Position numbers and translations under genes: made by a program | Notes under the pieces: generated by a model | What the model saw: only the letters and a program-made list of their open reading frames with translations | Database searches by the model: none | What the model was told of the DNA's origin: nothing | Shown: one piece after another, positions 11,202 to 49,153 of the stretch | How positions within the stretch are numbered: the first letter of the stretch is position 1 | How the letters are laid out: each line of letters starts with the position of its first letter | Assembly: GCA_021513695.1 (NCBI GenBank) | Contig: CP084166.1 | Coordinates: 192,001-256,000, forward strand | Length of the DNA: 64,000 bases | From: Candidatus Heimdallarchaeum aukensis | GTDB lineage: Archaea; Asgardarchaeota; Heimdallarchaeia; Heimdallarchaeales; Heimdallarchaeaceae | Direction: 5' to 3'

Positions 11202-12944
11202 ATGAGTGACAATAGAAGTATAGAGAAAAATCTTGAAAAGCTTGTCCCCCCACATGGAGGAAAACTTGTAGACAAACACATAATAAGTGAAGAAGAAAGG
11301 TACAATTATGTTGAAAAAGCAAAAACTTTGCCTGTTTTAGAATTAAATGAAAGAACATTAGCTGATCTTGAATGTATAGCTACTGGAGTTTACTCTCCTC
11401 TAACAGGATTTATGACAGAAGAAGATTACAATAGTGTTGTCGAAACAATGCGATTGAAAAATGGTATAATTTGGCCTATTCCAGTAACTCTTCCAGTTGA
11501 TGATAACTTTGCTGAAAGTTTAAGTAAAGGAGATGAAATTGCATTAAAGTGGAATGGCATATATATGGGTTTAATGACTGTTTCTGATATTTACAAACCT
11601 GATAAAAAGAAAGAAGCTCTTAATGTTTATAAAACAGAAGATAGCGCTCATCCTGGAGTAGCTGCTCTATACCAAACTGGAAGCTATTATTTGGGAGGAG
11701 AAGTTTTATTAATTGATGATCTTCCTCACAAAGATTTTGTAGAATATAGATTTACTCCAAAACAAACAAGAACTGAATTTGCAAAAAGAGGGTGGAAAAC
11801 AGTCGTAGCTTTCCAAACAAGGAACCCAATACACAGAGCACATGAATATTTACAGAAAGTTGCTTTAGAATCTGTTGATGGATTATTCATAAATCCTCTT
11901 GTGGGTTCAACAAAAAGTGATGATGTTCCAGTTCAAACTAGAATGGAAACTTACAAAGTAATATTAAATGCTTACTATCCAAAAGATAGATTCTTCCTAG
12001 GAGTATTCCCTGCAAACATGAGGTATGCTGGCCCTAGAGAAGCAATTATGCATGCAATTGCTAGACAAAATTATGGTTGTTCTCACATTATTATTGGAAG
12101 AGACCATGCTGGAGTTGGAAACTACTATGGAACTTATGAAGCTCAAGAGATTTTTGAACAATTTAGTGATAATGAGTTAAAGATTAAACCTTTCAAATTT
12201 GAGCACGCTTTTTATTGTAAAATTTGTGAGCAAATGGCTACTCAAAAGACTTGTCCTCATGGTAAAGAGAGTCATGTTTATCTCTCTGGAACAAAAGTTA
12301 GGCAGATGTTAAGAGAAGGACAAATGCTTCCTAGAGAGTTTACTCGACCAGAAGTAGCTATGATTTTAACTGATGCTTATAATGGAAAGGCAAAAATAGA
12401 ACAAAAGGGTGTAACTTTACTATTTACTGGTCTTAGCGGATCAGGAAAAACAACAATAACTAAAGCTCTTGCTCAGGAATTAAAGAAAAGAGGATATCAA
12501 GTAGAACGTCTTGATGGAGATGTTGTAAGACAGTATCTAACCAAAGATTTGGGCTTCAGTAAACATGACAGAGATGAAAACATTAGAAGAGTAGGCTTCG
12601 TTGCTCATATGTTAACTCGTAACAATGTTATAGTTTTAATGGCTAATATTGCTCCTTATCAAGCAGTAAGAGACGAAATCAGACAACTAATTGGAGACTT
12701 TATGGAAGTATATGTAAAAGCTCCTCTAGAGGTTTGTGAATCTAGAGATGTAAAAGGATTATATAAGAAAGCAAAAGCAGGTGAAATATTAAATTTCACA
12801 GGAGTCAATGATCCATATGAACCTCCAACTAACCCTGAAATTGTTTGTGAAACTGATAAAGAAACTGTAGAAGAATCAGTCCATAAAGTATTAGCAAAGT
12901 TAGTCGAATATGGATATGTTGATTCTAGTGTTTTAGAGAAATAA
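11202..12944 (+). CDS. sat: Bifunctional sulfate adenylyltransferase (ATP sulfurylase) / adenylylsulfate kinase
   Basis: [14 protein letters not shown] and [10 protein letters not shown] (Sat) in the N-terminal 390 aa. [10 protein letters not shown]-loop, DGDVVR and the FVAHML region (APS kinase, CysC-like) in the C-terminal 190 aa. AGGTGA lies 8 nt before the ATG. Confidence 0.9.
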
Positions 12945-27182: not shown

Positions 27183-28229
27183 ATGAAGACCTATAAATTA
27201 ATGAAAGAAGATTTTCCACAATTTCTAAGTCTTCTGCAAGAAAAAGGGAATCTTTATGGTCCAGTAAAGTCAAAAAATCATTATTCTTTCGAAAAGATTG
27301 ATGATTTGTCTAAGTTGACTTTTGACTACACAAGGACGCTAATGGGATTAAAAAAATTTGTAACTCCTCCCAAGTATAAAGTAAAACATTTTGATAAATC
27401 AGGCTCAGAGGATGTAATTCCTGAAGATGAAACAAATATAGTAATTGGTGCTCATCCTTGTGATATCCATGCGATGAAAATTCTTGATAAGCTATTTCTA
27501 GGACAGATCAAAGACCCATATTATAAAAAAAGGAGAGAAAATTTGGTGATTGTTGGACACTCATGTTTGCCAGATGAGAACTGCCTTTGCACTTCGACAG
27601 GTACAGATATGGTGTCGGATGGATTTGATTTGTTCTTAACGGAACTACAAGATTTCTATTTAGTGTGGGTAGGTTCTAGTAAAGGTTTATTTATTATCAT
27701 GTCTTCAGAAGATTTGTTTAATGATAAAATAGAAATGTGTGACATTGCAGAATATACAAGTTGGCAAGAAAACAGACAAAATTCATTCAAGACGACTATT
27801 CCATTTCATTTAATGCCTGATATAGTCCATCTAATATATGAAGAAGATGAATTATGGGATCAATTTGGAGAAAAATGTTTAAGCTGTGGTACTTGCAGTC
27901 TTGTATGTCCAACATGTAATTGTTTCAATGTTGAAGATAAGATACTTATTCATGCCGATGAAGTAGTTAGAGAAAGAATGCTAGACAGTTGTACCCTACC
28001 CTACTACTCTGTAGTAGCAGGAGATCATGATTTTAGGCCTGACAGAACTAAGAGGTTGAAACTCTATTACACTCATAAATTAAAAGAATATATAGGAAAA
28101 TGGGGTCAACCAGCTTGTGTTGGTTGTGGACGATGTGTCACTTATTGTCCTGTTGGTATAAATGTTAAAACAGTTTCAAATGCTTTTTACGAAGCGATTC
28201 AATGTGTTCGGGAGGTAAAGAAAATATGA
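27183..28229 (+). CDS. hydB: Group 3b [NiFe]-hydrogenase (sulfhydrogenase-type) beta subunit, 4Fe-4S protein (AsrA-like)
   Basis: CLSCGTCSLVCPTCNC and CVGCGRCVTYCPVGI ferredoxin-type motifs. First gene of a beta-gamma-delta-alpha cluster with the same order as Pyrococcus hydBGDA. Confidence 0.75.
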   Translation: MKTYKLMKEDFPQFLSLLQEKGNLYGPVKSKNHYSFEKIDDLSKLTFDYTRTLMGLKKFVTPPKYKVKHFDKSGSEDVIPEDETNIVIGAHPCDIHAMKILDKLFLGQIKDPYYKKRRENLVIVGHSCLPDENCLCTSTGTDMVSDGFDLFLTELQDFYLVWVGSSKGLFIIMSSEDLFNDKIEMCDIAEYTSWQENRQNSFKTTIPFHLMPDIVHLIYEEDELWDQFGEKCLSCGTCSLVCPTCNCFNVEDKILIHADEVVRERMLDSCTLPYYSVVAGDHDFRPDRTKRLKLYYTHKLKEYIGKWGQPACVGCGRCVTYCPVGINVKTVSNAFYEAIQCVREVKKI

Positions 28230-29086
28230 TATCAGATAGAACTAAATTAGAAAATCCATATGAAGACCATTTGGCTACAATCATTGATTATCGCGATTTA
28301 ACAAGCGATACAAGATATTATAAGTTGAAATTTGTAGAACCAGAAGTACAAGAACACACTGGTGATTACAAACCAGGTCAGTTTGCGATGTTCTCCATTC
28401 CTGGTGTTGGAGAAGCTCCATTCTCTATATCTTCAACTCCGACAAGACCAGCTTTTCTAGAGTTTGGAATTAGAAAAGTGGGTTCATTTACTGATGCTTT
28501 ATTCAAGAAAAAAGAAGGAGATACTGTTTATATCCGTGGTCCTTATGGAAATGGATTTGACATGAAAAGCATGGAGGGAAAAGATATAGTTATAGTAAGT
28601 GGAGGATTAGGTGCAGTTCCATTAAGATCTGTTTTACTTTATCTAGAAGATAAAAGAGAATTATATAATAATGTATTCTTCCTAAATGGAGCTAGAACAC
28701 CTGAAGATATGCTTTTTAAAGAAGACTTCTTAGCTATGCATGCAAGAGAAATAATTGAAACACATTTAACAGTAGATAAAGATCCTACTGGAGAATGGAA
28801 ACACAATGTAGGTGTTGTAACTACACTATTCGAAAAAATTAACGGTCGAGTGGATAAAGATAATGCATATGCCTTAATCTGTGGGCCCCCAGTAATGTAT
28901 AAATTCGTTATAAAAGAATTGCTAAAAATGGAATTTTCAAAGAAAAATATACTAATGACACTAGAAAGAAGAATGAAGTGTGGTCAAGGACACTGTGGAC
29001 ATTGTGCTATTCACGGTGTTTATACTTGCTTAGATGGACCAGTGTTTAACTACTGGGATTATGAACGTATGGTGGAGTTGATTTAA
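28226..29086 (+). CDS. hydG: Hydrogenase gamma subunit, FAD/NAD(P)-binding oxidoreductase with C-terminal 2Fe-2S site
   Basis: FNR-like GQFAMFSIPGVGEAPFSIS, GGLGAVPL, and C-terminal MKCGQGHCGHCAIHGVYTCLDGPVF. GGAGGT at 28211..28216, with ATG 28226 overlapping the upstream TGA (ATGA). The track start 28202 is probably too early. Confidence 0.8.
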   Translation: MISDRTKLENPYEDHLATIIDYRDLTSDTRYYKLKFVEPEVQEHTGDYKPGQFAMFSIPGVGEAPFSISSTPTRPAFLEFGIRKVGSFTDALFKKKEGDTVYIRGPYGNGFDMKSMEGKDIVIVSGGLGAVPLRSVLLYLEDKRELYNNVFFLNGARTPEDMLFKEDFLAMHAREIIETHLTVDKDPTGEWKHNVGVVTTLFEKINGRVDKDNAYALICGPPVMYKFVIKELLKMEFSKKNILMTLERRMKCGQGHCGHCAIHGVYTCLDGPVFNYWDYERMVELI

Positions 29087-29087
29087 G

Positions 29088-29879
29088 ATGTGGACAAGTG
29101 AGCATAAACCTATTGTTGGTGTTTTTGGTTTCAGTGGTTGTGCTGGAGATCAGTTGCGATTAATTCATATGGAGGATGAACTTGTTAGTTTATTTACCAC
29201 AGCAGAGATTAAATTCTTTCATATGGCTCAATCTCATCAAGAAGTTGAGCATGTTGACATTGCTCTAGTTGAAGGTAGTATAAATACCAAAAAGCAACTT
29301 GAAGAACTGAAAGAGATACGTGAAAAATCTACTTTTCTAGTTGCATTAGGTACTTGTGCTTGTTTTGGCGGTATTCAATATTTGAACGAGAAAGATGAAG
29401 CTTTTGAAGAGCGATTTAGACATGTATACGGTTCAAATATCAAGAAAAAAGAATTTATAGTCGGAGAAGCTATCCCTCCTCAACCTTTATGCAACTTTGT
29501 AAAAGTCGATGCCATGGTTCCAGGATGTCCAATAGAAAAAGATAATCTTTTACCTATATACACTAAATTGATAAAAGGTATTAGACCTCAAAAATATCCT
29601 GCTCCCGTTTGCGTTGAATGTAAATTGGAAGGTAATGATTGTCTTCTTCTTCACGGTATTCCTTGTATAGGACCTGTGGTCTCTGCAGGTTGTGGAGCTA
29701 TATGCCCTAGTCATAATCTCCCATGTGTAGGTTGTTGGGGTCCTTATGAAGCAGCGAACTATAAATCAATGATTGACAAGCTCGAAGAGATAGGTGTAGA
29801 TAAAGAAACAGCGTTACGCAAGATCAAGTTATTTGGCGGAAGTAAGGCAGAAGAAGAATTGGAAAAGGTGATAAAATGA
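29088..29879 (+). CDS. hydD: [NiFe]-hydrogenase small (delta) subunit
   Basis: GFSGCAGDQL, GTCACFGG, PGCP and further Cys clusters (CVECK, CGAICPSHNLPCVGCWGP). 263 aa. Confidence 0.8.
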   Translation: MWTSEHKPIVGVFGFSGCAGDQLRLIHMEDELVSLFTTAEIKFFHMAQSHQEVEHVDIALVEGSINTKKQLEELKEIREKSTFLVALGTCACFGGIQYLNEKDEAFEERFRHVYGSNIKKKEFIVGEAIPPQPLCNFVKVDAMVPGCPIEKDNLLPIYTKLIKGIRPQKYPAPVCVECKLEGNDCLLLHGIPCIGPVVSAGCGAICPSHNLPCVGCWGPYEAANYKSMIDKLEEIGVDKETALRKIKLFGGSKAEEELEKVIK

Positions 29880-31159
29880 GTAAGGATATTAATGTAAAAG
29901 TTCTCTCTCGTGTTGAGGGCGATGGAGGAATAAAAGTATATGTGAAGAACAATAAAGTGGAACAAGTGCTAGTTGATATTTTTGAAGGACCACGAATGAT
30001 CGAAGCTTTAGTAAGAGGAAAAACTTTTCAGGAAAACGTTTCTCTCGTATCAAGGATTTGTGCAATTTGTACAGTTTCACATCGTTATGCTTCAATCAAA
30101 GCAATAGAGAAAGCTCTGAAGGTTGAAGTTCCTGAGAAGATACAATTGTTAAGAAAACTTCTACATTTAGCTGAATATATAGAATCTCATATTTTACATG
30201 TTTACTTCTTAGCCCTTCCTGATTTCTTTAGGAAACCTAGTGCTATCGCTTTACTTCCTACACATAAAGAAACTGTTGTAGAAGCAATAACATTGAAGAA
30301 GTACGGAACAGAATTAATGAAATTGTTAATGGGGAGAAAGATTCATGGAGAAAATCCACAAGTAGGCGGTTTTGGAAGAATACCAACTAATAAAGAACTA
30401 GATGAATTTGCTGAAAAAGCAAAAGAATATATTCCTCAACTTGCTGCATTTATCGATGTGTTAGCTTCACTTGAAATACCAGATTATTGCGAGAGAGAAA
30501 CAACATTTATGTGTTGTAATCCTCCAAACAATGAATTTGGATTTGAAGGAGACACTATTCTTATTTCTACTGGAGAGGAATATCCTGTTGAAGAATACAA
30601 GAAACTAACAAATGAGCGAGTTGTTCCTCATTCATATGCTAAAAGATCAAGATACAAAGATAAACCATTCACCGTTGGAGCACTAGCAAGACTTATTTTA
30701 ATTGGTGATAGACTAACAGGATTAGCTAAAGAAAAATTTGAGAATTACTATAATGAAAAATGGAAAGTTAATCCATTATACAATAACTTAGCTCAAGCAA
30801 TAGAAGCTCTCTGGTCATTTGAACAGATTCCAGAACTAGTAGAAAAAATAAAGTCTCTTCCTGACTCAGAAATCGTTGAAGTGAAAAACCTTAACGGAAA
30901 AGCAACTGCAGCTGTTGAAGCTCCTAGAGGTATACTCTATCACACCTATGAAATTAAGGATGGAAAGATGGTCAGCGCTGACATTATTACACCAACTGCT
31001 CAATTCCTTGATGATGTTGAAGAGTACATTAGAGTTGCAGCAGAGAAGCTAATTGCCGAGAAAAACGAAGAAACCGAGTTACATTTAGAAATGATTGCTA
31101 GAGCTTATGATCCTTGTATCTCTTGCAGTTGCCACATGGTAAAACTAATTGAAGAATAA
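29876..31159 (+). CDS. hydA: [NiFe]-hydrogenase large (alpha) subunit
   Basis: N-terminal SRICAICTVSH (RxCxxCxxxH) and C-terminal DPCISCSCH (DPCxxCxxH) Ni-Fe ligand motifs. 427 aa, the size of group 3 enzymes. ATGA overlap with hydD. Confidence 0.9.
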   Translation: MSKDINVKVLSRVEGDGGIKVYVKNNKVEQVLVDIFEGPRMIEALVRGKTFQENVSLVSRICAICTVSHRYASIKAIEKALKVEVPEKIQLLRKLLHLAEYIESHILHVYFLALPDFFRKPSAIALLPTHKETVVEAITLKKYGTELMKLLMGRKIHGENPQVGGFGRIPTNKELDEFAEKAKEYIPQLAAFIDVLASLEIPDYCERETTFMCCNPPNNEFGFEGDTILISTGEEYPVEEYKKLTNERVVPHSYAKRSRYKDKPFTVGALARLILIGDRLTGLAKEKFENYYNEKWKVNPLYNNLAQAIEALWSFEQIPELVEKIKSLPDSEIVEVKNLNGKATAAVEAPRGILYHTYEIKDGKMVSADIITPTAQFLDDVEEYIRVAAEKLIAEKNEETELHLEMIARAYDPCISCSCHMVKLIEE

Positions 31160-31170
31160 AAGTGTGGTAA

Positions 31171-31650
31171 TTGACAGAAGAAAATTCAAACCCTTTTTCT
31201 TTTTCTTGTTTTACAAAACCAGAACACACTGCTTTTCTTTGTTTTGGAAATTTAGATAGAAGTGATGACGCTATAGGTCTTCTTATAGCTCGAGATTTAA
31301 AAAACCTTTTTCCACACGTTTTTAGTGAAGAATTCGACGACCCCATTGGCGAACTACTAATGATTCTTGAAGATGAAAGTATAGAGTGCATAACTGTAAT
31401 TGATGCATGTGATCTAAAAGCTGAAAATGGAAGTGTAATTGTATCTTCTAATATTAAAGTTGCAGAAAGTCGTTTGAGTACACATACTATACCTATAAAG
31501 CAATTGATAGAACTGATCCACAACGAAGGAAAAGAATTTGTTTTTATTGGTGTTCAAGTTTATAATGTAGAATTTATGGGAGAAATGAGTGAAGAAGTAT
31601 TAAAAGCTAAAGAAAAAATCCTTTCTTGGTTTGTTAAAGAAAATCAATGA
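31171..31650 (+). CDS. Hydrogenase maturation endopeptidase (HycI/HoxW family)
   Basis: LCFGNLDRSDDAIGLLIA matches the GNxxxxDDGxG motif. Lies immediately downstream of the large subunit. TTG start. Confidence 0.7.
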   Translation: MTEENSNPFSFSCFTKPEHTAFLCFGNLDRSDDAIGLLIARDLKNLFPHVFSEEFDDPIGELLMILEDESIECITVIDACDLKAENGSVIVSSNIKVAESRLSTHTIPIKQLIELIHNEGKEFVFIGVQVYNVEFMGEMSEEVLKAKEKILSWFVKENQ

Positions 31651-32980
31651 GTTCTCTCATTTTTGAATAAGCATCTATTCCTTTTCTTGTAATTGAATAA
31701 TATTTTTTGTTTTTCCCTTTTATTTTTGAAGAAATCAGATTCTTTTCTTCAAGCTCATTGAGATGTTGGTATATTGATTGAAGCGATTTTCTTTTTCCTA
31801 GAGCTTTCCAGATAGCGTAACCGTGATTTGCTTTCTTTCTGGAAATCAGATCCAATATTTCAAACTTTGTTGTAGATTTTTCAGAAAGACCCCATACTGC
31901 TTTTTTAATTCCTCTTAATTTAGAAGCAAATATGTTTAACGCATTCAAGCCTGACCCAGAAAGAAGAGCAACTGTAGAATCGACGTTGATTCCTTCATTT
32001 TCTAATAATTGATTAGCAGCAACAACAACAGAAGCTGAAGCAGGTTCAATAAATAAGCCTTCTTTTTTTGCTAAAAGAAGGGCTTGATCTATCATTTTTT
32101 CTCCCTCTATTTCAATTTCTTTTCCTTTAGTTTTTAGAAGAATATCGCCGATTTTTTGAGAAAGTGTCTGAGGTGTAGGAATCTTTAGAGATTCTGCATA
32201 AAAGTCTAAATCTTCTTGTTTCAAAGACACAGCATAAAATGAGGGGATTTTTTCTATCCAACCAGATGCTAAAGCATCTTCAAAACCCCTATATATAGAA
32301 TAGAAAAGAGAGCCAGAACCTTTTGGAATAATAATATTTTCAATTGTTTCAGATAAGTGAGCGATTTCTAAACCTATAGTTTTCTGACCTTCAACAGTCA
32401 AAATATTGTCAGATGAAGCGAAAAAAACTCCACCCTTTTGTAGTTCTCTCCCCTTCTCAATTGCTTCTTCAGTAGTAGAACCATGTTCGACTACTTTACT
32501 TCCATAAACTTTCATCTGTTCAATTTTTGATAATTCTAAATTCGAAGGTACAATGTTAGTGAGTTCTAAACCTGCTAATGCAGAGTAAGCTGATAAACTT
32601 ATGCCTAAAGAACCAGAACTAGAGCACACCAGTTTAGAAATAGAGGAAGAAGAAAGATAAGAAGCAATAAGTGAAGATGCACGGTCTCTGAATGATCCAG
32701 TTGGATTTCTAAATTCAAGTTTTAGTTTTAATCCTTTTAGTGATGAAATGTTGTTAATTAATAAAATAGGTGTATTTCCTTCAGACAATGTATAAACCTT
32801 CTCTAGTGAAGGTAAAAAAGGACTGAATGACCATATATTTGATATTTTTATCTTACTTTTTTCAGGTCCTTGAATAGGGTCTATGTTTTGGATAGAACCA
32901 CAAAAAGGGCAAAGAAGATCAAAATTAATAGATAATGTATCTTTCTTACATTTGATACAATACGGTTTTTTCTTCCACAT
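31634..32980 (-). CDS. Zn-ribbon + threonine-synthase-like fold-type II PLP domain (PLP lysine replaced) + C-terminal PadR-type wHTH
   Basis: CIKC-x14-CPFC; EGNTPIL; FRNPTGSFRDRAS, where family members have NPTGSFKDRG (codon AGA at 32687..32689, verified on DNA); SSSGSLG in place of SSGNxG; C-terminal GYAIWKALGKRKSLQSIYQHLNELEEKNLISSKIKGKNKKYYSITRKGIDAY. Confidence 0.75.
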   Translation of the reverse strand: MWKKKPYCIKCKKDTLSINFDLLCPFCGSIQNIDPIQGPEKSKIKISNIWSFSPFLPSLEKVYTLSEGNTPILLINNISSLKGLKLKLEFRNPTGSFRDRASSLIASYLSSSSISKLVCSSSGSLGISLSAYSALAGLELTNIVPSNLELSKIEQMKVYGSKVVEHGSTTEEAIEKGRELQKGGVFFASSDNILTVEGQKTIGLEIAHLSETIENIIIPKGSGSLFYSIYRGFEDALASGWIEKIPSFYAVSLKQEDLDFYAESLKIPTPQTLSQKIGDILLKTKGKEIEIEGEKMIDQALLLAKKEGLFIEPASASVVVAANQLLENEGINVDSTVALLSGSGLNALNIFASKLRGIKKAVWGLSEKSTTKFEILDLISRKKANHGYAIWKALGKRKSLQSIYQHLNELEEKNLISSKIKGKNKKYYSITRKGIDAYSKMRELIDFL

Positions 32981-32991
32981 TTTTTAGCTCC

Positions 32992-33186
32992 TTATTCTGT
33001 TAAAACAGGCTCTTCTTTTGGATCGATTCTAATATCGCTATTACAGAGTGCATCAAAAATTTCTTCGATCTTAAAAGAATCAGGGTCTTTAAAGTAGAGA
33101 TAAAGTTCCAAATCTCTCTTGATTAAGAAATCAAGAAGTTTTATAAGCAATTCTTTTTCTGTTTTTGAGTTAACAATAATTTGCAT
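32992..33186 (-). CDS. Hypothetical small protein (64 aa)
   Basis: ORF 11 nt upstream of, and co-directional with, the ThrC-like gene. No family recognised. Confidence 0.35.
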   Translation of the reverse strand: MQIIVNSKTEKELLIKLLDFLIKRDLELYLYFKDPDSFKIEEIFDALCNSDIRIDPKEEPVLTE

Positions 33187-33371
33187 TATATAAACATAGA
33201 TTTTCTATTCTTATATTTTTTGAATAAATATTACATTATTTTTGAATAAACAAAGTTGTCCTAAACATTCTTTAAATCAATATCTTTCATATTTTTTTGA
33301 TTTGAAAAATAATTGTTTTTAAGATAATTTTATAAATAACCTCTATCTTTTGATAAAATAAGGAGTTAAAA

Positions 33372-35161: not shown

Positions 35162-36112
35162 TTACTTTGTTAGAAACTCAAGTTTCTCGATATTAATAAA
35201 ACCAAAACTCACTAGATTTGAAAATAAAGAGAGAAAATAGGGGAAAGAAATAATTAATTCTTCATTCTTAAAAATCTCATAAATATCGTAAATCGTATGA
35301 TTAATATTTCCACAGCATTCTTTTAGCATTTTTATGAAAAGTTTGTAAACTTTAACTGGTGTCATCGGGAAAATCTCATCAAAATTTTTTTCGAATATAT
35401 CAATATTTGTTTTGTAACTGTGTGGAATAGCGATTCTAGATTGTAATAACAAATCCAACTCTAGCAATGAAATATCATCAGGGGGATTTTCAATAATTCT
35501 ATCAATGTAAGCAGGGATAAAAGCTAGTGAAAAATTGTCTAAATAAACAAGCTGTTCTATTAAATCGTTAATTTTCTTAATCCACAGTTGAGCTATTTTA
35601 GTATTTAGTGATGAATTGATGCAGATCTTAGTTTCTATGAAGTTGAGAATAGAGTATTCAACAATTTCATTGCACTGTTTATCAGTATTATTGGAATTCT
35701 CTTCAAGATAGTATATTTCTTCTCTTAATTTGTCTATTATCTTAAGAGAGTATAGGTTTACTCCTCCGTAATCAATCGTTGGGGTTAATATTTGCTGATT
35801 ATATTTTGAAATTGATGGTATTGGAATCCCGAATTCTACATCTTGTTCTCCTATTATTGAAGGTGTTTTATCAATATCCGTACGCAAAAGAACATGAGAT
35901 CTAACTGAATTGTTAGTGTCTATAAAGAGTTTTGTAGCTCTTAATGAGCTATCTCCACACTCATGTACATCTACAAGTTCAAAGATATCTTTACCTTCGT
36001 TCAAAAAAGGTAAAATCGTCTTTGGAATGAAAATTATTCTTTGTTTTTGACATGCTGTACATAAATACTCTATTGAAACTCGAGATTCAGCTCTTATTGT
36101 CAATTTCTTCAA
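35162..36112 (-). CDS. Unknown-function protein, CxxC...HxC N-terminal module; paralogue of 48127..48990
   Basis: IEYLCTACQKQRIIFIPK...DIFELVDVHECG...LFIDTNNSVRS...GIPIPS aligns by eye with IEYQCNICLKQRIMGLPE...LMDIIDVHKCK...LHVDSDLNVRT...GLPLPS of the other gene. Both have helical C-terminal halves ending in a wHTH-like LxxLVxxGxINI. Confidence 0.6.
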   Translation of the reverse strand: MKKLTIRAESRVSIEYLCTACQKQRIIFIPKTILPFLNEGKDIFELVDVHECGDSSLRATKLFIDTNNSVRSHVLLRTDIDKTPSIIGEQDVEFGIPIPSISKYNQQILTPTIDYGGVNLYSLKIIDKLREEIYYLEENSNNTDKQCNEIVEYSILNFIETKICINSSLNTKIAQLWIKKINDLIEQLVYLDNFSLAFIPAYIDRIIENPPDDISLLELDLLLQSRIAIPHSYKTNIDIFEKNFDEIFPMTPVKVYKLFIKMLKECCGNINHTIYDIYEIFKNEELIISFPYFLSLFSNLVSFGFINIEKLEFLTK

Positions 36113-48126: not shown

Positions 48127-48990
48127 TTATTTTTTATCTACAAAATTTATGGTTAAGATATTAATTATACCTTTTTCAACTAAATTAGCTAAGATTGCGA
48201 TATATTCACTAAAAGAAAAATTATACTTTAGTTCATTGTATATTAGTAATATGTTGTTTTTATCATTGTTTTTACACTTTTCAATAATAGAAGCTAGATT
48301 TCGACTTTCAACAGTATCAAGGTCATTAAAAATCTCTCCAAATTCAGTGTCTTCTTTTATAGTTTGAGGAATTGAGCAAATACTATTTATTATTAATTCA
48401 AGAGCAAGTTTATCGCTCAAGTTCATCTCGTTCGTTACCTTATCATCTAAAAATTTTAGTACAAGTTCTAAAGCTTTGACATCAATATAGGTTGCTTTAG
48501 AGTAAGCTTCTTCAATTCCAGTTAACCATTTTTTAACTTGTTTTTTCTGAACTTCTTTTTCTGTTAATATTTGAATTTCAAGGAATTGGTCATCAATAAT
48601 TATTTTATCTAAGTCGTTTTTTTTAGTTTGATCAAAAACAAATATCTTATTTCTAATTTTATCGTTTATTTGGAAATAATCAATGTTTCTGATTCTAATA
48701 AGATGATCAGTAATGATTTCAATTTTCGATCTCTCTACTTTTTGAGGAGAAGGAAGAGGAAGTCCAGGAATACTAGATTCATCATTTTCCTTTTTTACTG
48801 GAATCTGTGTCCTTACATTTAAATCAGAATCCACATGAAGTAGAATAGCATTTTCCTTATTACCTTTGCATTTGTGAACATCAATAATATCCATTAAACC
48901 TCTCGTATCTACATTAAAATTTATATTTTCAGGAAGACCCATTATTCTTTGTTTTAAGCAGATGTTACATTGATATTCTATCTTCTTCAT
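48127..48990 (-). CDS. Unknown-function protein, CxxC...HxC N-terminal module; paralogue of 35162..36112
   Basis: See 35162..36112. 287 aa: MKKIEYQCNICLKQRIMGLPENINFNVDTRGLMDIIDVHKCKGN..., with C-terminal EYIAILANLVEKGIINILTINF. Confidence 0.6.
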   Translation of the reverse strand: MKKIEYQCNICLKQRIMGLPENINFNVDTRGLMDIIDVHKCKGNKENAILLHVDSDLNVRTQIPVKKENDESSIPGLPLPSPQKVERSKIEIITDHLIRIRNIDYFQINDKIRNKIFVFDQTKKNDLDKIIIDDQFLEIQILTEKEVQKKQVKKWLTGIEEAYSKATYIDVKALELVLKFLDDKVTNEMNLSDKLALELIINSICSIPQTIKEDTEFGEIFNDLDTVESRNLASIIEKCKNNDKNNILLIYNELKYNFSFSEYIAILANLVEKGIINILTINFVDKK

Positions 48991-49153
48991 TCAAACTCTA
49001 CCATTAAATTATATATTTATTTTATTCATGAAGGAATTAATTAATATTTTGGTTTTTTCTTTTAAAATTTCTTAGAGATAAAATTATATTTTAAAAAGTA
49101 ATCTTAAATTATGGCTTAAAACCTTTCTAGTTTAAACTTTTTTGTAATTTAAA

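Follow-up and report, generated by a model that had tools for sequence, protein, structure and literature searches.

Attachment of an enzyme-derived sensor to a winged helix-turn-helix (wHTH) domain is a known concept. In Archaea, ThiR, which carries a ThiN-like domain, and RbkR, which combines a riboflavin kinase with a wHTH, are one-component regulators of vitamin synthesis and uptake genes, and their sensors are homologs of an enzyme from the pathway of the regulated vitamin. The bacterial MocR/GabR/PdxR regulators reuse the fold of an enzyme dependent on pyridoxal 5'-phosphate (PLP): an N-terminal GntR-type wHTH is joined to a domain resembling fold-type I aminotransferases, and MocR proteins keep the PLP-binding lysine and sense by aldimine chemistry. 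PdxR members of the MocR group regulate vitamin B6 genes (PMC5320631, PMC9997740), and a survey from 2023, which covers PLP metabolism across Bacteria and Archaea, lists no regulators other than MocR-type PdxR proteins (PMC9997740). Here we describe a gene from a 64,000-nt stretch of the genome of Candidatus Heimdallarchaeum aukensis (contig CP084166.1, positions 192,001 to 256,000; "the window"), which encodes a paralog of threonine synthase (ThrC) that lacks the lysine forming the Schiff base with PLP and ends in a PadR-type wHTH. An initial annotation, made from the sequence alone, had proposed that the enzyme fold serves as the ligand-sensing domain of a transcription factor and had likened the protein to MocR/GabR regulators. 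This comparison is apt as a description of the working principle but does not extend to family membership, since here the wHTH is C-terminal and of PadR type, the enzyme domain belongs to fold-type II, the lysine is gone and the hosts are archaeal. ThiR and RbkR are likewise built from a different enzyme fold and a different DNA-binding domain, and RbkR is still catalytic, whereas the ThrC-fold family lacks the catalytic residue. The combination had been put forward as not known from earlier descriptions and, in line with this, full-text literature searches found no published account of a ThrC-fold/PadR fusion.

The gene and its parts are the following:
31634..32980, minus strand: whole gene, Lys-less ThrC paralog with PadR wHTH, 448 aa (open reading frame (ORF); Pfam PALP and PadR)
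32900..32959, minus strand: N-terminal zinc ribbon, C8-x2-C11-x12-C24-x2-C27 (translation)
31955..32791, minus strand: fold-type II PLP-enzyme (PALP/ThrC) domain, residues 64-342, presumed sensor (PF00291)
31859..31954, minus strand: linker, residues 343-374, with a conserved VWGLS..STTKFEIL segment (model and alignment columns)
31670..31858, minus strand: PadR-type wHTH, residues 375-437 (PF03551)
31745..31783, minus strand: presumed recognition helix, residues 400-412, LQSIYQHLNELEE (predicted model)
32687..32689, minus strand: codon AGA, Arg98 at the Schiff-base lysine position (DNA and ThrC alignments)
32609..32611, minus strand: Ser124 replacing the Asn of the S-x-G-N loop, a change of the Asgard clade (alignments)

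Residues 64-342 match the Pfam family PALP (PF00291) with an E-value of 7e-49, and residues 375-437 match PadR (PF03551) with 36.5 bits in the full-length protein, above the gathering score of 27. The wHTH domain alone scores 40.7 bits against PF03551, and 16 of 16 family members match as well. A profile of the C-terminal domain retrieves solved PadR regulators, namely 9qbc (E 1.4e-7), 4esb and 5dym. AlphaFold2 (AF2), given a 26-sequence alignment, returned a model with a predicted local distance difference test score (pLDDT) of 88.4 and a predicted template modeling score of 0.81. Its C-terminal part has the topology helix-helix-helix-strand-strand-helix (helices 367-380, 387-393 and 400-412, strands 416-421 and 425-430, helix 432-447), with block pLDDT values of 80-94 over residues 371-440 and of 59 at the C-terminal end, while the linker is flexible (58-77 in 10-residue blocks over residues 341-370). 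The PadR winged helix suspected at the C-terminus is thus borne out by family score, structural relatives and predicted topology. In the presumed recognition helix, Y404, Q405, H406 and L407 are invariant or almost so from Asgard archaea through Bathyarchaeia. The best Foldseek matches of the model are the ThrC structures 2zsj, 6nmx and 1uin (TM-scores of 0.78-0.80 on the target), and the same architecture is absent among the solved structures searched. PadR regulators are typically small proteins (~110-200 aa) that begin with the wHTH and end in a short helical part, whereas the wHTH here follows a 370-aa enzyme-derived domain. At the N-terminus, the ribbon given before as CxxC-x14-CxxC has in fact the spacing CxxC-x12-CxxC.

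The active-site motif of the protein is RNPTGSFRDRASS. In phmmer alignments to the solved ThrC structures 2zsj, 6cgq and 2d1f, R98 stands opposite the lysine of NPTGSFKDR and SSSGSLG stands opposite ASTGNTS. The replacement of the Schiff-base lysine by arginine, already reported in the initial annotation and read again on the DNA, is thereby placed on the catalytic position, and the loss of the SSGNxG asparagine is confirmed, its place being taken by S124. The protein is identical (100%) to P0001 from a metagenome-assembled genome of the Heimdallarchaeaceae. Among its close homologs, 119 of 120 have Arg at the lysine position and one has Ser, and K-to-R is therefore neither chance nor a sequencing error.

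Loss of the lysine is coupled to the presence of the wHTH, near-perfectly and throughout the family. An exhaustive profile search covered 1.84 billion representatives, and the top 150 were aligned to the profile together with five controls. In this set, 60 of 62 relatives without wHTH keep the lysine, and the two exceptions are a fragment and a protein matched only to profile position 320. Retention of the lysine in orthologues had been named as the observation that would speak for a strain-specific mutation or a sequencing error; only 2 of the 87 scorable wHTH-bearing representatives retain it, and the others have R (22), L (21), I (17), V (8), T (5), M (4), F (3) or further residues. In a neighbor-joining tree computed from the enzyme-domain columns only, the wHTH proteins cluster together and fall into an Arg-type subgroup, to which the window's protein belongs, and a hydrophobic-type (Leu/Ile/Val-type) subgroup. 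The two wHTH-bearing proteins that keep the lysine (SFKDR), P0124 from a Bathyarchaeota and P0127 from a Lokiarchaeota genome, are placed inside the Arg-type subgroup; they may combine enzyme and regulator functions, represent ancestral intermediates, or have reverted from R to K, which takes one nucleotide change. A genome scan detected relatives in at least 588 species-level genomes, including Heimdall-, Loki-, Odin-, Baldr- and Jord-archaea, many Bathyarchaeia and Desulfurococcales, and the gene occurs in two species available in culture, Promethearchaeum syntrophicum and Lokiarchaeum ossiferum. The family is archaeal, spanning Asgard archaea, Bathyarchaeia and Thermoproteota, and its architecture is ancient, widespread and catalogued in databases as 'threonine synthase'.

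The cofactor pocket has been preserved. The PLP-scaffold residues N92, P93, T94, F97, D99, R100, G123, G221, G223, E312, T341 and G344 are kept at 89-100% in pseudoenzymes and enzymes alike. The loop Asn, which contacts the 3'-OH of PLP in ThrC enzymes, persists in 85% of the pseudoenzymes and in 96% of the enzymes. Its loss is specific to the Asgard clade, which has STGSF where S-x-G-N stands elsewhere, and distant members retain the Asn. In this clade, the window's protein included, N124 is changed to S and K346 to N, two positions conserved in enzymes and in the other pseudoenzymes. The four ribbon cysteines are kept in 82-94% of pseudoenzymes and Lys-bearing relatives; because the ribbon is equally conserved in wHTH-bearing and Lys-bearing groups, it is ancestral to the ThrC subfamily and no part of the innovation.

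The relation to genuine ThrC can be seen in nine Bathyarchaeia loci, in which a canonical ThrC (with Lys, ASTGNTS and zinc ribbon, but without wHTH) is encoded directly beside the fusion. The two proteins of a locus share 42-45% identity. From ThrC to fusion, GNT becomes GNM, LN-S..NPFR becomes ATS..NPLV, and GNAGN becomes GSGGT; the window's protein has SGSLG, ASSDNILT and GSGSL at the matching positions. In ThrC, the changed residues (the Thr after G-N, N-S..R, and the Asn residues of G-N-A-G-N) bind the phosphate of O-phosphohomoserine. The fusion has its fold in common with the parent zinc-ribbon subfamily of ThrC (NF006050 and NF004170 types), along with the N-terminal Cys4 ribbon and the majority of the motifs of the PLP scaffold, and differs from it by the missing Schiff-base lysine, the replaced substrate-phosphate residues and the added linker and PadR domain. 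Since the lysine is lost while the scaffold is kept, and since a true ThrC exists alongside with the substrate-phosphate residues replaced in the fusion, the fusion appears to be a catalytically dead ThrC paralog that keeps a cofactor-shaped pocket.

Scores against the NCBIfam equivalogs for ThrC reveal a risk of misannotation. The window's protein remains below all three cut-offs (NF004170, 252 vs 421; NF006050, 108 vs 303; TIGR00260, 80 vs 167). Some Lys-less members, however, pass those of NF006050 and TIGR00260; P0139, with Ile at the lysine site, reaches 329 against a cut-off of 303 and 240 against 167. Family members are named 'threonine synthase' or 'PLP-dependent enzyme' in the source databases. 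When NF006050, TIGR00260 and NF004170 were set against P0139, P0150 and others, Lys-less fusions came out above 'threonine synthase' equivalog cut-offs, and annotation pipelines will therefore call these putative regulators threonine synthase.

Such names, together with the well conserved PLP scaffold, could be taken to mean that the protein is still an enzyme, with threonine synthase or another PLP activity plus a DNA-binding domain, bifunctional in the manner of BirA, PutA and RbkR, in which case the role of the lysine would fall to a different residue or to free PLP. P0124 and P0127, which keep a lysine that is one nucleotide away from Arg, point in the same direction. However, more than half of the wHTH-bearing representatives have Leu, Ile, Val, Met, Phe or Thr at this position, residues which cannot replace Schiff-base or general-base chemistry. 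A replacement lysine was sought in the alignments, but no new conserved one exists, K87, K152 and K200 being conserved in the enzymes too. The loss of the substrate-phosphate residues, the true ThrC in the same loci and the scores far below the ThrC cut-offs also disagree with a retained activity, and, given the hydrophobic replacements at the lysine site and the coexistence with true ThrC, we consider it very improbable.

Next to the fusion, a gene for the substrate-binding (S) component of an energy-coupling factor (ECF) transporter recurs. In a sample of 80 Arg-type loci, such a gene (PF07155, E 4e-28) is present in 62; it lies directly downstream of the regulator gene and on the same strand in 47 of the 74 loci with enough downstream sequence, at a median gap of ~90 nt. 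Some lineages add a double ATP-binding cassette (ABC) ATPase (A-A') and a CbiQ-type T component. Where S is joined by both A-A' and T, as in Heimdall and Desulfurococcales loci, the module constitutes a complete dedicated ECF importer. As an independent test, 80 metagenomic loci of the hydrophobic-type subfamily were inspected, 67 of them with enough upstream sequence. Genes of this S-component family recur in 53 of the 80, and in 43 of the 67 the S gene lies immediately 5' of the regulator gene in divergent orientation. The recurrence of one S family in a different arrangement in the second subfamily indicates that the linkage survived rearrangement.

When a substrate-level name for the S component was sought in databases, only generic names were retrieved. 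Its profile has a single match in the PDB, chain S of 4hzu (E 6e-16), which also belongs to PF07155 and is the sole solved relative. This protein is PdxU2/HmpT, reported to carry pyridoxamine, and mass spectrometry detected pyridoxamine rather than hydroxymethylpyrimidine (HMP) in it (PMC4860826). PdxU and PdxU2, the known ECF-type S components for vitamin B6, both belong to PF07155/COG4720 (PMC9997740). PdxU2/HmpT resembles the archaeal proteins weakly, chiefly over the first 100 residues, and the archaeal proteins are ~90 residues longer. Glu41 of HmpT lies opposite an invariant Glu of the archaeal S components. In 29 of the 80 Arg-type loci, often from Bathyarchaeia, the S gene is followed by a gene of the PurM superfamily, related to aminoimidazole ribonucleotide synthase (for example L034 10017..11027 and L044 10008..11015, plus 27 other loci). 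Its product is nearest to HypE and ThiL, scoring higher to HypE and below both curated cut-offs, and judging from this similarity it may be an ATP-dependent enzyme acting on the imported compound.

The same neighborhood would also suit a regulator of an HmpT-type HMP transporter that responds to HMP phosphate (HMP-P) or HMP pyrophosphate, precursors of the thiamine pyrimidine. 4hzu_S was first assigned as a hydroxymethylpyrimidine transporter, HmpT, an ambiguous assignment, and the PurM-superfamily neighbor in 29 of 80 loci resembles ThiL, the thiamine-phosphate kinase, as well as HypE. HMP-P itself is similar to PLP in its 2-methyl group, its 5-phosphooxymethyl group and its ring nitrogen; as it has no aldehyde, the lysine would be unneeded, and as it has no 3'-OH, the Asn lost in the Asgard clade would have nothing to contact. 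Several observations disagree: the compound found in 4hzu_S was pyridoxamine, the PurM-like protein is closer to HypE than to ThiL and reaches neither cut-off, the Asn persists in 85% of the family, and no thi genes are among the recurrent neighbors. We therefore regard HMP-P or HMP-PP as an unlikely ligand.

The spacer between Arg-type regulator and S gene contains an 18-bp palindrome that directly follows a TATA-like box, 5-25 nt ahead of the S-gene start. The palindrome has the form GTATAGTT-NN-AACTATAC in Bathyarchaeia and TTCAAGTT-NN-AACTTGAA in Heimdallarchaeia and Asgardarchaeum, with the core consensus WAGTT-NN-AACTW. Representative sites are:
Heimdall: TTCAAGTTGTAACTTGAA
Bathyarchaeia: GTATAGTTATAACTATAC
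The 18-mer is located upstream of S in 50 of the 62 loci with an S gene. The core WAGTTNNAACTW occurs 42 times in the 11.5 kb of S-upstream windows but only 7 times in the other 1,027 kb, i.e. at densities of 3.66 and 0.007 per kb, a ~500-fold difference. In the hydrophobic-type loci, the short divergent spacers carry ATATATAAGctt.agCCTATATATaGGc. Allowing at most one mismatch, 46 of 78 loci have the 12-bp palindrome CCTATATATAGG immediately before the regulator gene, as compared to 6 occurrences elsewhere in 682 kb, and exact copies number 24 at the regulator vs 1 elsewhere. It is centered ~26 nt before the ATG, which is the position of the TATA box for a leaderless transcript. When the S gene is displaced or inverted, the palindrome of the respective subfamily follows it: in the hydrophobic-type locus L119, where the S gene is 2.4 kb away, the palindrome precedes S by 30 nt and is missing in front of the regulator, and in the Arg-type locus L046, where S is inverted, the palindrome is still found 13 nt upstream of S. 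These positions seem typical of archaeal repressors, and the core common to the Arg-type sites agrees with the near-invariance of the YQHL recognition helix. PadR and LmrR bind operators of the type ATGT-N8-ACAT, which the sites described here do not resemble.

Further copies of CCTATATATAGG precede homologous genes for radical S-adenosylmethionine (radical-SAM) proteins of ~320 aa (exact at L094 8609, with one mismatch at L086 6872) and, with one mismatch, a gene for an EcfA-like ATPase in L107. These genes are possible further members of the regulon; the radical-SAM protein matched no curated family above cut-off.

The specificity of these palindromes also bears on two other explanations. 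If the wHTH did not bind DNA, the protein could be a cytoplasmic partner of the ECF transporter, engaged in substrate trapping or gating, and the palindromes would be read by another factor. Gene linkage alone would suit such a physical partnership. The domain, however, bears the full PadR signature and is under stronger constraint than any other part of the protein, the family is accompanied by palindromes that are gene-specific and placed as expected for a regulator, and purifying selection persists in genomes without an adjacent transporter, which leaves this explanation hardly credible. A second alternative is that the protein senses a metabolite of the threonine pathway (O-phosphohomoserine, homoserine or threonine), maybe with non-covalently bound PLP, and regulates thrC and hom. 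In the nine Bathyarchaeia loci mentioned above, thrC is divergently adjacent to the fusion gene, with a spacer of 137-214 nt in six; genes ilvD and for homoserine dehydrogenase precede thrC in 6 of 9 loci, a gene for an ACT-domain protein lies between in five, and a block ACGGCTAtTCTTATCGGC is conserved in the thrC-regulator spacer of four related loci. This arrangement is nevertheless limited to one lineage (9 of 80 loci), whereas the link to S holds in both subfamilies. Moreover, the residues of ThrC for the substrate phosphate are all replaced in the fusion, the palindrome of the family was not found in the thrC-regulator spacer, and the conserved block is explicable by shared ancestry alone. 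Sensing of a threonine-pathway metabolite is thus quite improbable. The ACGGCTAtTCTTATCGGC block itself, found ~20 nt upstream of a TATA-like element in L015, L016, L020 and L029, may be a second regulatory site or reflect shared ancestry; it was set aside as a candidate site, the sequences being too few and too closely related to judge. A functional link to homoserine dehydrogenase and the ACT-domain protein was likewise dismissed, as these neighbors are explained by the adjacent true thrC in one Bathyarchaeia lineage.

The proposal that the sensor of a transcription factor derives here from a recruited enzyme fold is supported by the coupling of lysine loss to the wHTH, by the preserved cofactor scaffold with its replaced substrate-phosphate residues, by the coexistence with true ThrC, by the PadR domain and by the candidate operators. 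We propose that the fusion, a ThrC paralog unable to perform PLP chemistry after replacement of its Schiff-base lysine, would act as a dimer on a palindrome at the promoter of the adjacent ECF importer. The putative operator would be the 18-bp palindrome between TATA-like box and S start in the Arg-type, and in the Leu/Ile/Val-type CCTATATATAGG, which overlaps the TATA position in the short divergent spacer. Repression is the likely mode, as a protein bound there would stand in the way of TBP/TFB or RNA polymerase. A small molecule in the former PLP pocket would change the affinity for DNA, and PLP or pyridoxamine 5'-phosphate (PMP), bound reversibly and non-covalently, would be the likeliest candidates. 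Without the lysine PLP would not be trapped as internal aldimine, and the protein could therefore read the free cofactor pool. The part of this model that concerns regulator and target appears highly probable to us. That the protein is a ligand-responsive one-component regulator of a PdxU2/HmpT-like ECF importer, with a B6 vitamer as its likeliest ligand, we regard as probable. The phosphate of a B6 vitamer as the actual ligand is favored by the kept PLP scaffold and the PdxU2-like partner, and we put it forward as a candidate somewhat short of an even chance. In its boldest form, the model would make the family the missing archaeal regulator of vitamin B6, which would bind PLP or PMP reversibly and repress a PdxU2-like importer via the 18-bp palindrome when B6 is plentiful; this we suggest only tentatively. 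Such a regulator would be ancient, common to Asgard archaea and Thermoproteota/Bathyarchaeia, and of an origin independent of the bacterial MocR-type PdxR.

A number of points weigh against this interpretation. Architecture, lysine loss, pocket conservation, gene linkage and specific palindromes are shown directly, but DNA binding, the direction of regulation and the identity of the ligand are what we infer from sequence. The substrate specificity of S components is hard to transfer by homology (PMC9997740), and His84 of HmpT lies opposite a Lys in the archaeal S components. On the side of the regulator, N124S and K346N make PLP binding less secure in the Asgard clade than in Bathyarchaeia. 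The operators of the two subfamilies differ despite the nearly invariant YQHL helix, and the neighbor-joining tree that defines these subfamilies has no support values. Searches for an operator upstream of the regulator in Arg-type loci, using k-mers, dyads and expectation maximization (EM), gave nothing above background; at width 20, EM found an information content of 12.8 as compared to 11.3-11.8 for null sets. A universal operator upstream of Arg-type regulators was consequently rejected, the real element being downstream, in the regulator-to-S spacer. In the window itself, tblastn detected no homolog of the S component, nor of the PurM-like protein, and no operator match rises above chance.

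The window's copy differs in its surroundings from those of sister genomes. Its immediate neighbors are:
32992..33186, minus strand: conserved 64-aa ORF ending 11 nt upstream of the regulator (tblastn, gene calls)
31634..31650, no strand assigned: 17-nt convergent overlap with the gene for a HycI-type hydrogenase protease (ORF coordinates)

In sister genomes of the Heimdallarchaeaceae, the genes run in the order acyl-CoA synthetase (opposite strand), 64-aa gene, regulator, ECF-S, double ATPase, T, HycI (opposite strand) and [NiFe] hydrogenase. ECF-S, double ATPase and probable T are located between regulator and HycI in L161-L164, L003, L004 and L012, and L003, L004 and L012 additionally have a gene of the major facilitator superfamily there. 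The window and H. endolithica PR6 (L001) have the same order minus the three transporter genes. The tail-to-tail overlap with the maturation protease (ORF 31171..31650), to which the initial annotation had drawn attention, is real, and it is a deletion scar, as the sister loci hold transporter genes at this place. A functional link to the hydrogenase was rejected, since three or four transporter genes separate it from the regulator in sister genomes.

Compared to its H. endolithica orthologue, the gene has a ratio of nonsynonymous to synonymous substitution rates of 0.078 overall and of 0.039 over linker and wHTH, the lowest of any region. Such strong purifying selection in a window without transporter or operator indicates that the gene is functional and acts elsewhere in the genome; on these grounds, the copy would be an orphan regulator whose targets must lie outside the window. 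Two operator matches in the window were dismissed as chance-level: one at 11926, inside the coding sequence of an ATP-sulfurylase/APS-kinase (adenosine 5'-phosphosulfate kinase) protein (expected count 0.18), and one at 49128, just past the 3' end of a gene (expected count 1.44). An inverted repeat at 33267-33310, upstream of the 64-aa ORF, was rejected as it is not conserved in locus L001 of the 90%-identical orthologue.

The 64-aa ORF is conserved directly upstream of the regulator in seven Heimdall loci, with 81% identity in L001 and 46-56% in L002-L006 and L010 (tblastn), and is called as a gene in L161-L164. A GGAG motif lies between its stop codon and the ATG of the regulator, and the two are probably co-transcribed. 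The ORF has no Pfam match; its product may be a Heimdallarchaeia-specific small protein that partners the regulator.

Among the remaining genes of the window, a four-gene [NiFe] hydrogenase cluster (28202..31650, plus strand) encodes an NAD-binding/Fe-S subunit, an Oxidored_q6 small subunit, a NiFeSe_Hases large subunit and the HycI-type protease. It is syntenic in Heimdall and Baldr loci and borders the deletion, but is otherwise unrelated. Two paralogs at 35162..36112 and 48127..48990, both on the minus strand, have 25% identity (E 6e-23) and a common N-terminal IEYxCxxCxKQRI..DVHxC motif; the former has no Pfam match. A fusion of a PUA-like domain, ATP-sulfurylase and APS kinase (11202..12944, plus strand; 580 aa) would, judging from its domains, perform sulfate activation in a single polypeptide.

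For metabolic reconstructions of Asgard archaea and Bathyarchaeia, misnamed Lys-less proteins mean that predictions of threonine biosynthesis are inflated. Beyond this, the fusions make up a large uncharacterized family of putative archaeal transcription factors with predicted target and operators, and such testable hypotheses are uncommon, especially for Asgard archaea. They would represent a second, independent case in which the fold of a PLP enzyme serves as the sensor of a regulator, with another fold, another DNA-binding domain and the lysine lost. Transport and regulation of vitamin B6 are largely unknown outside a few bacteria (PMC9997740), and the family may reveal an archaeal importer of vitamin-B6 type together with its regulator.

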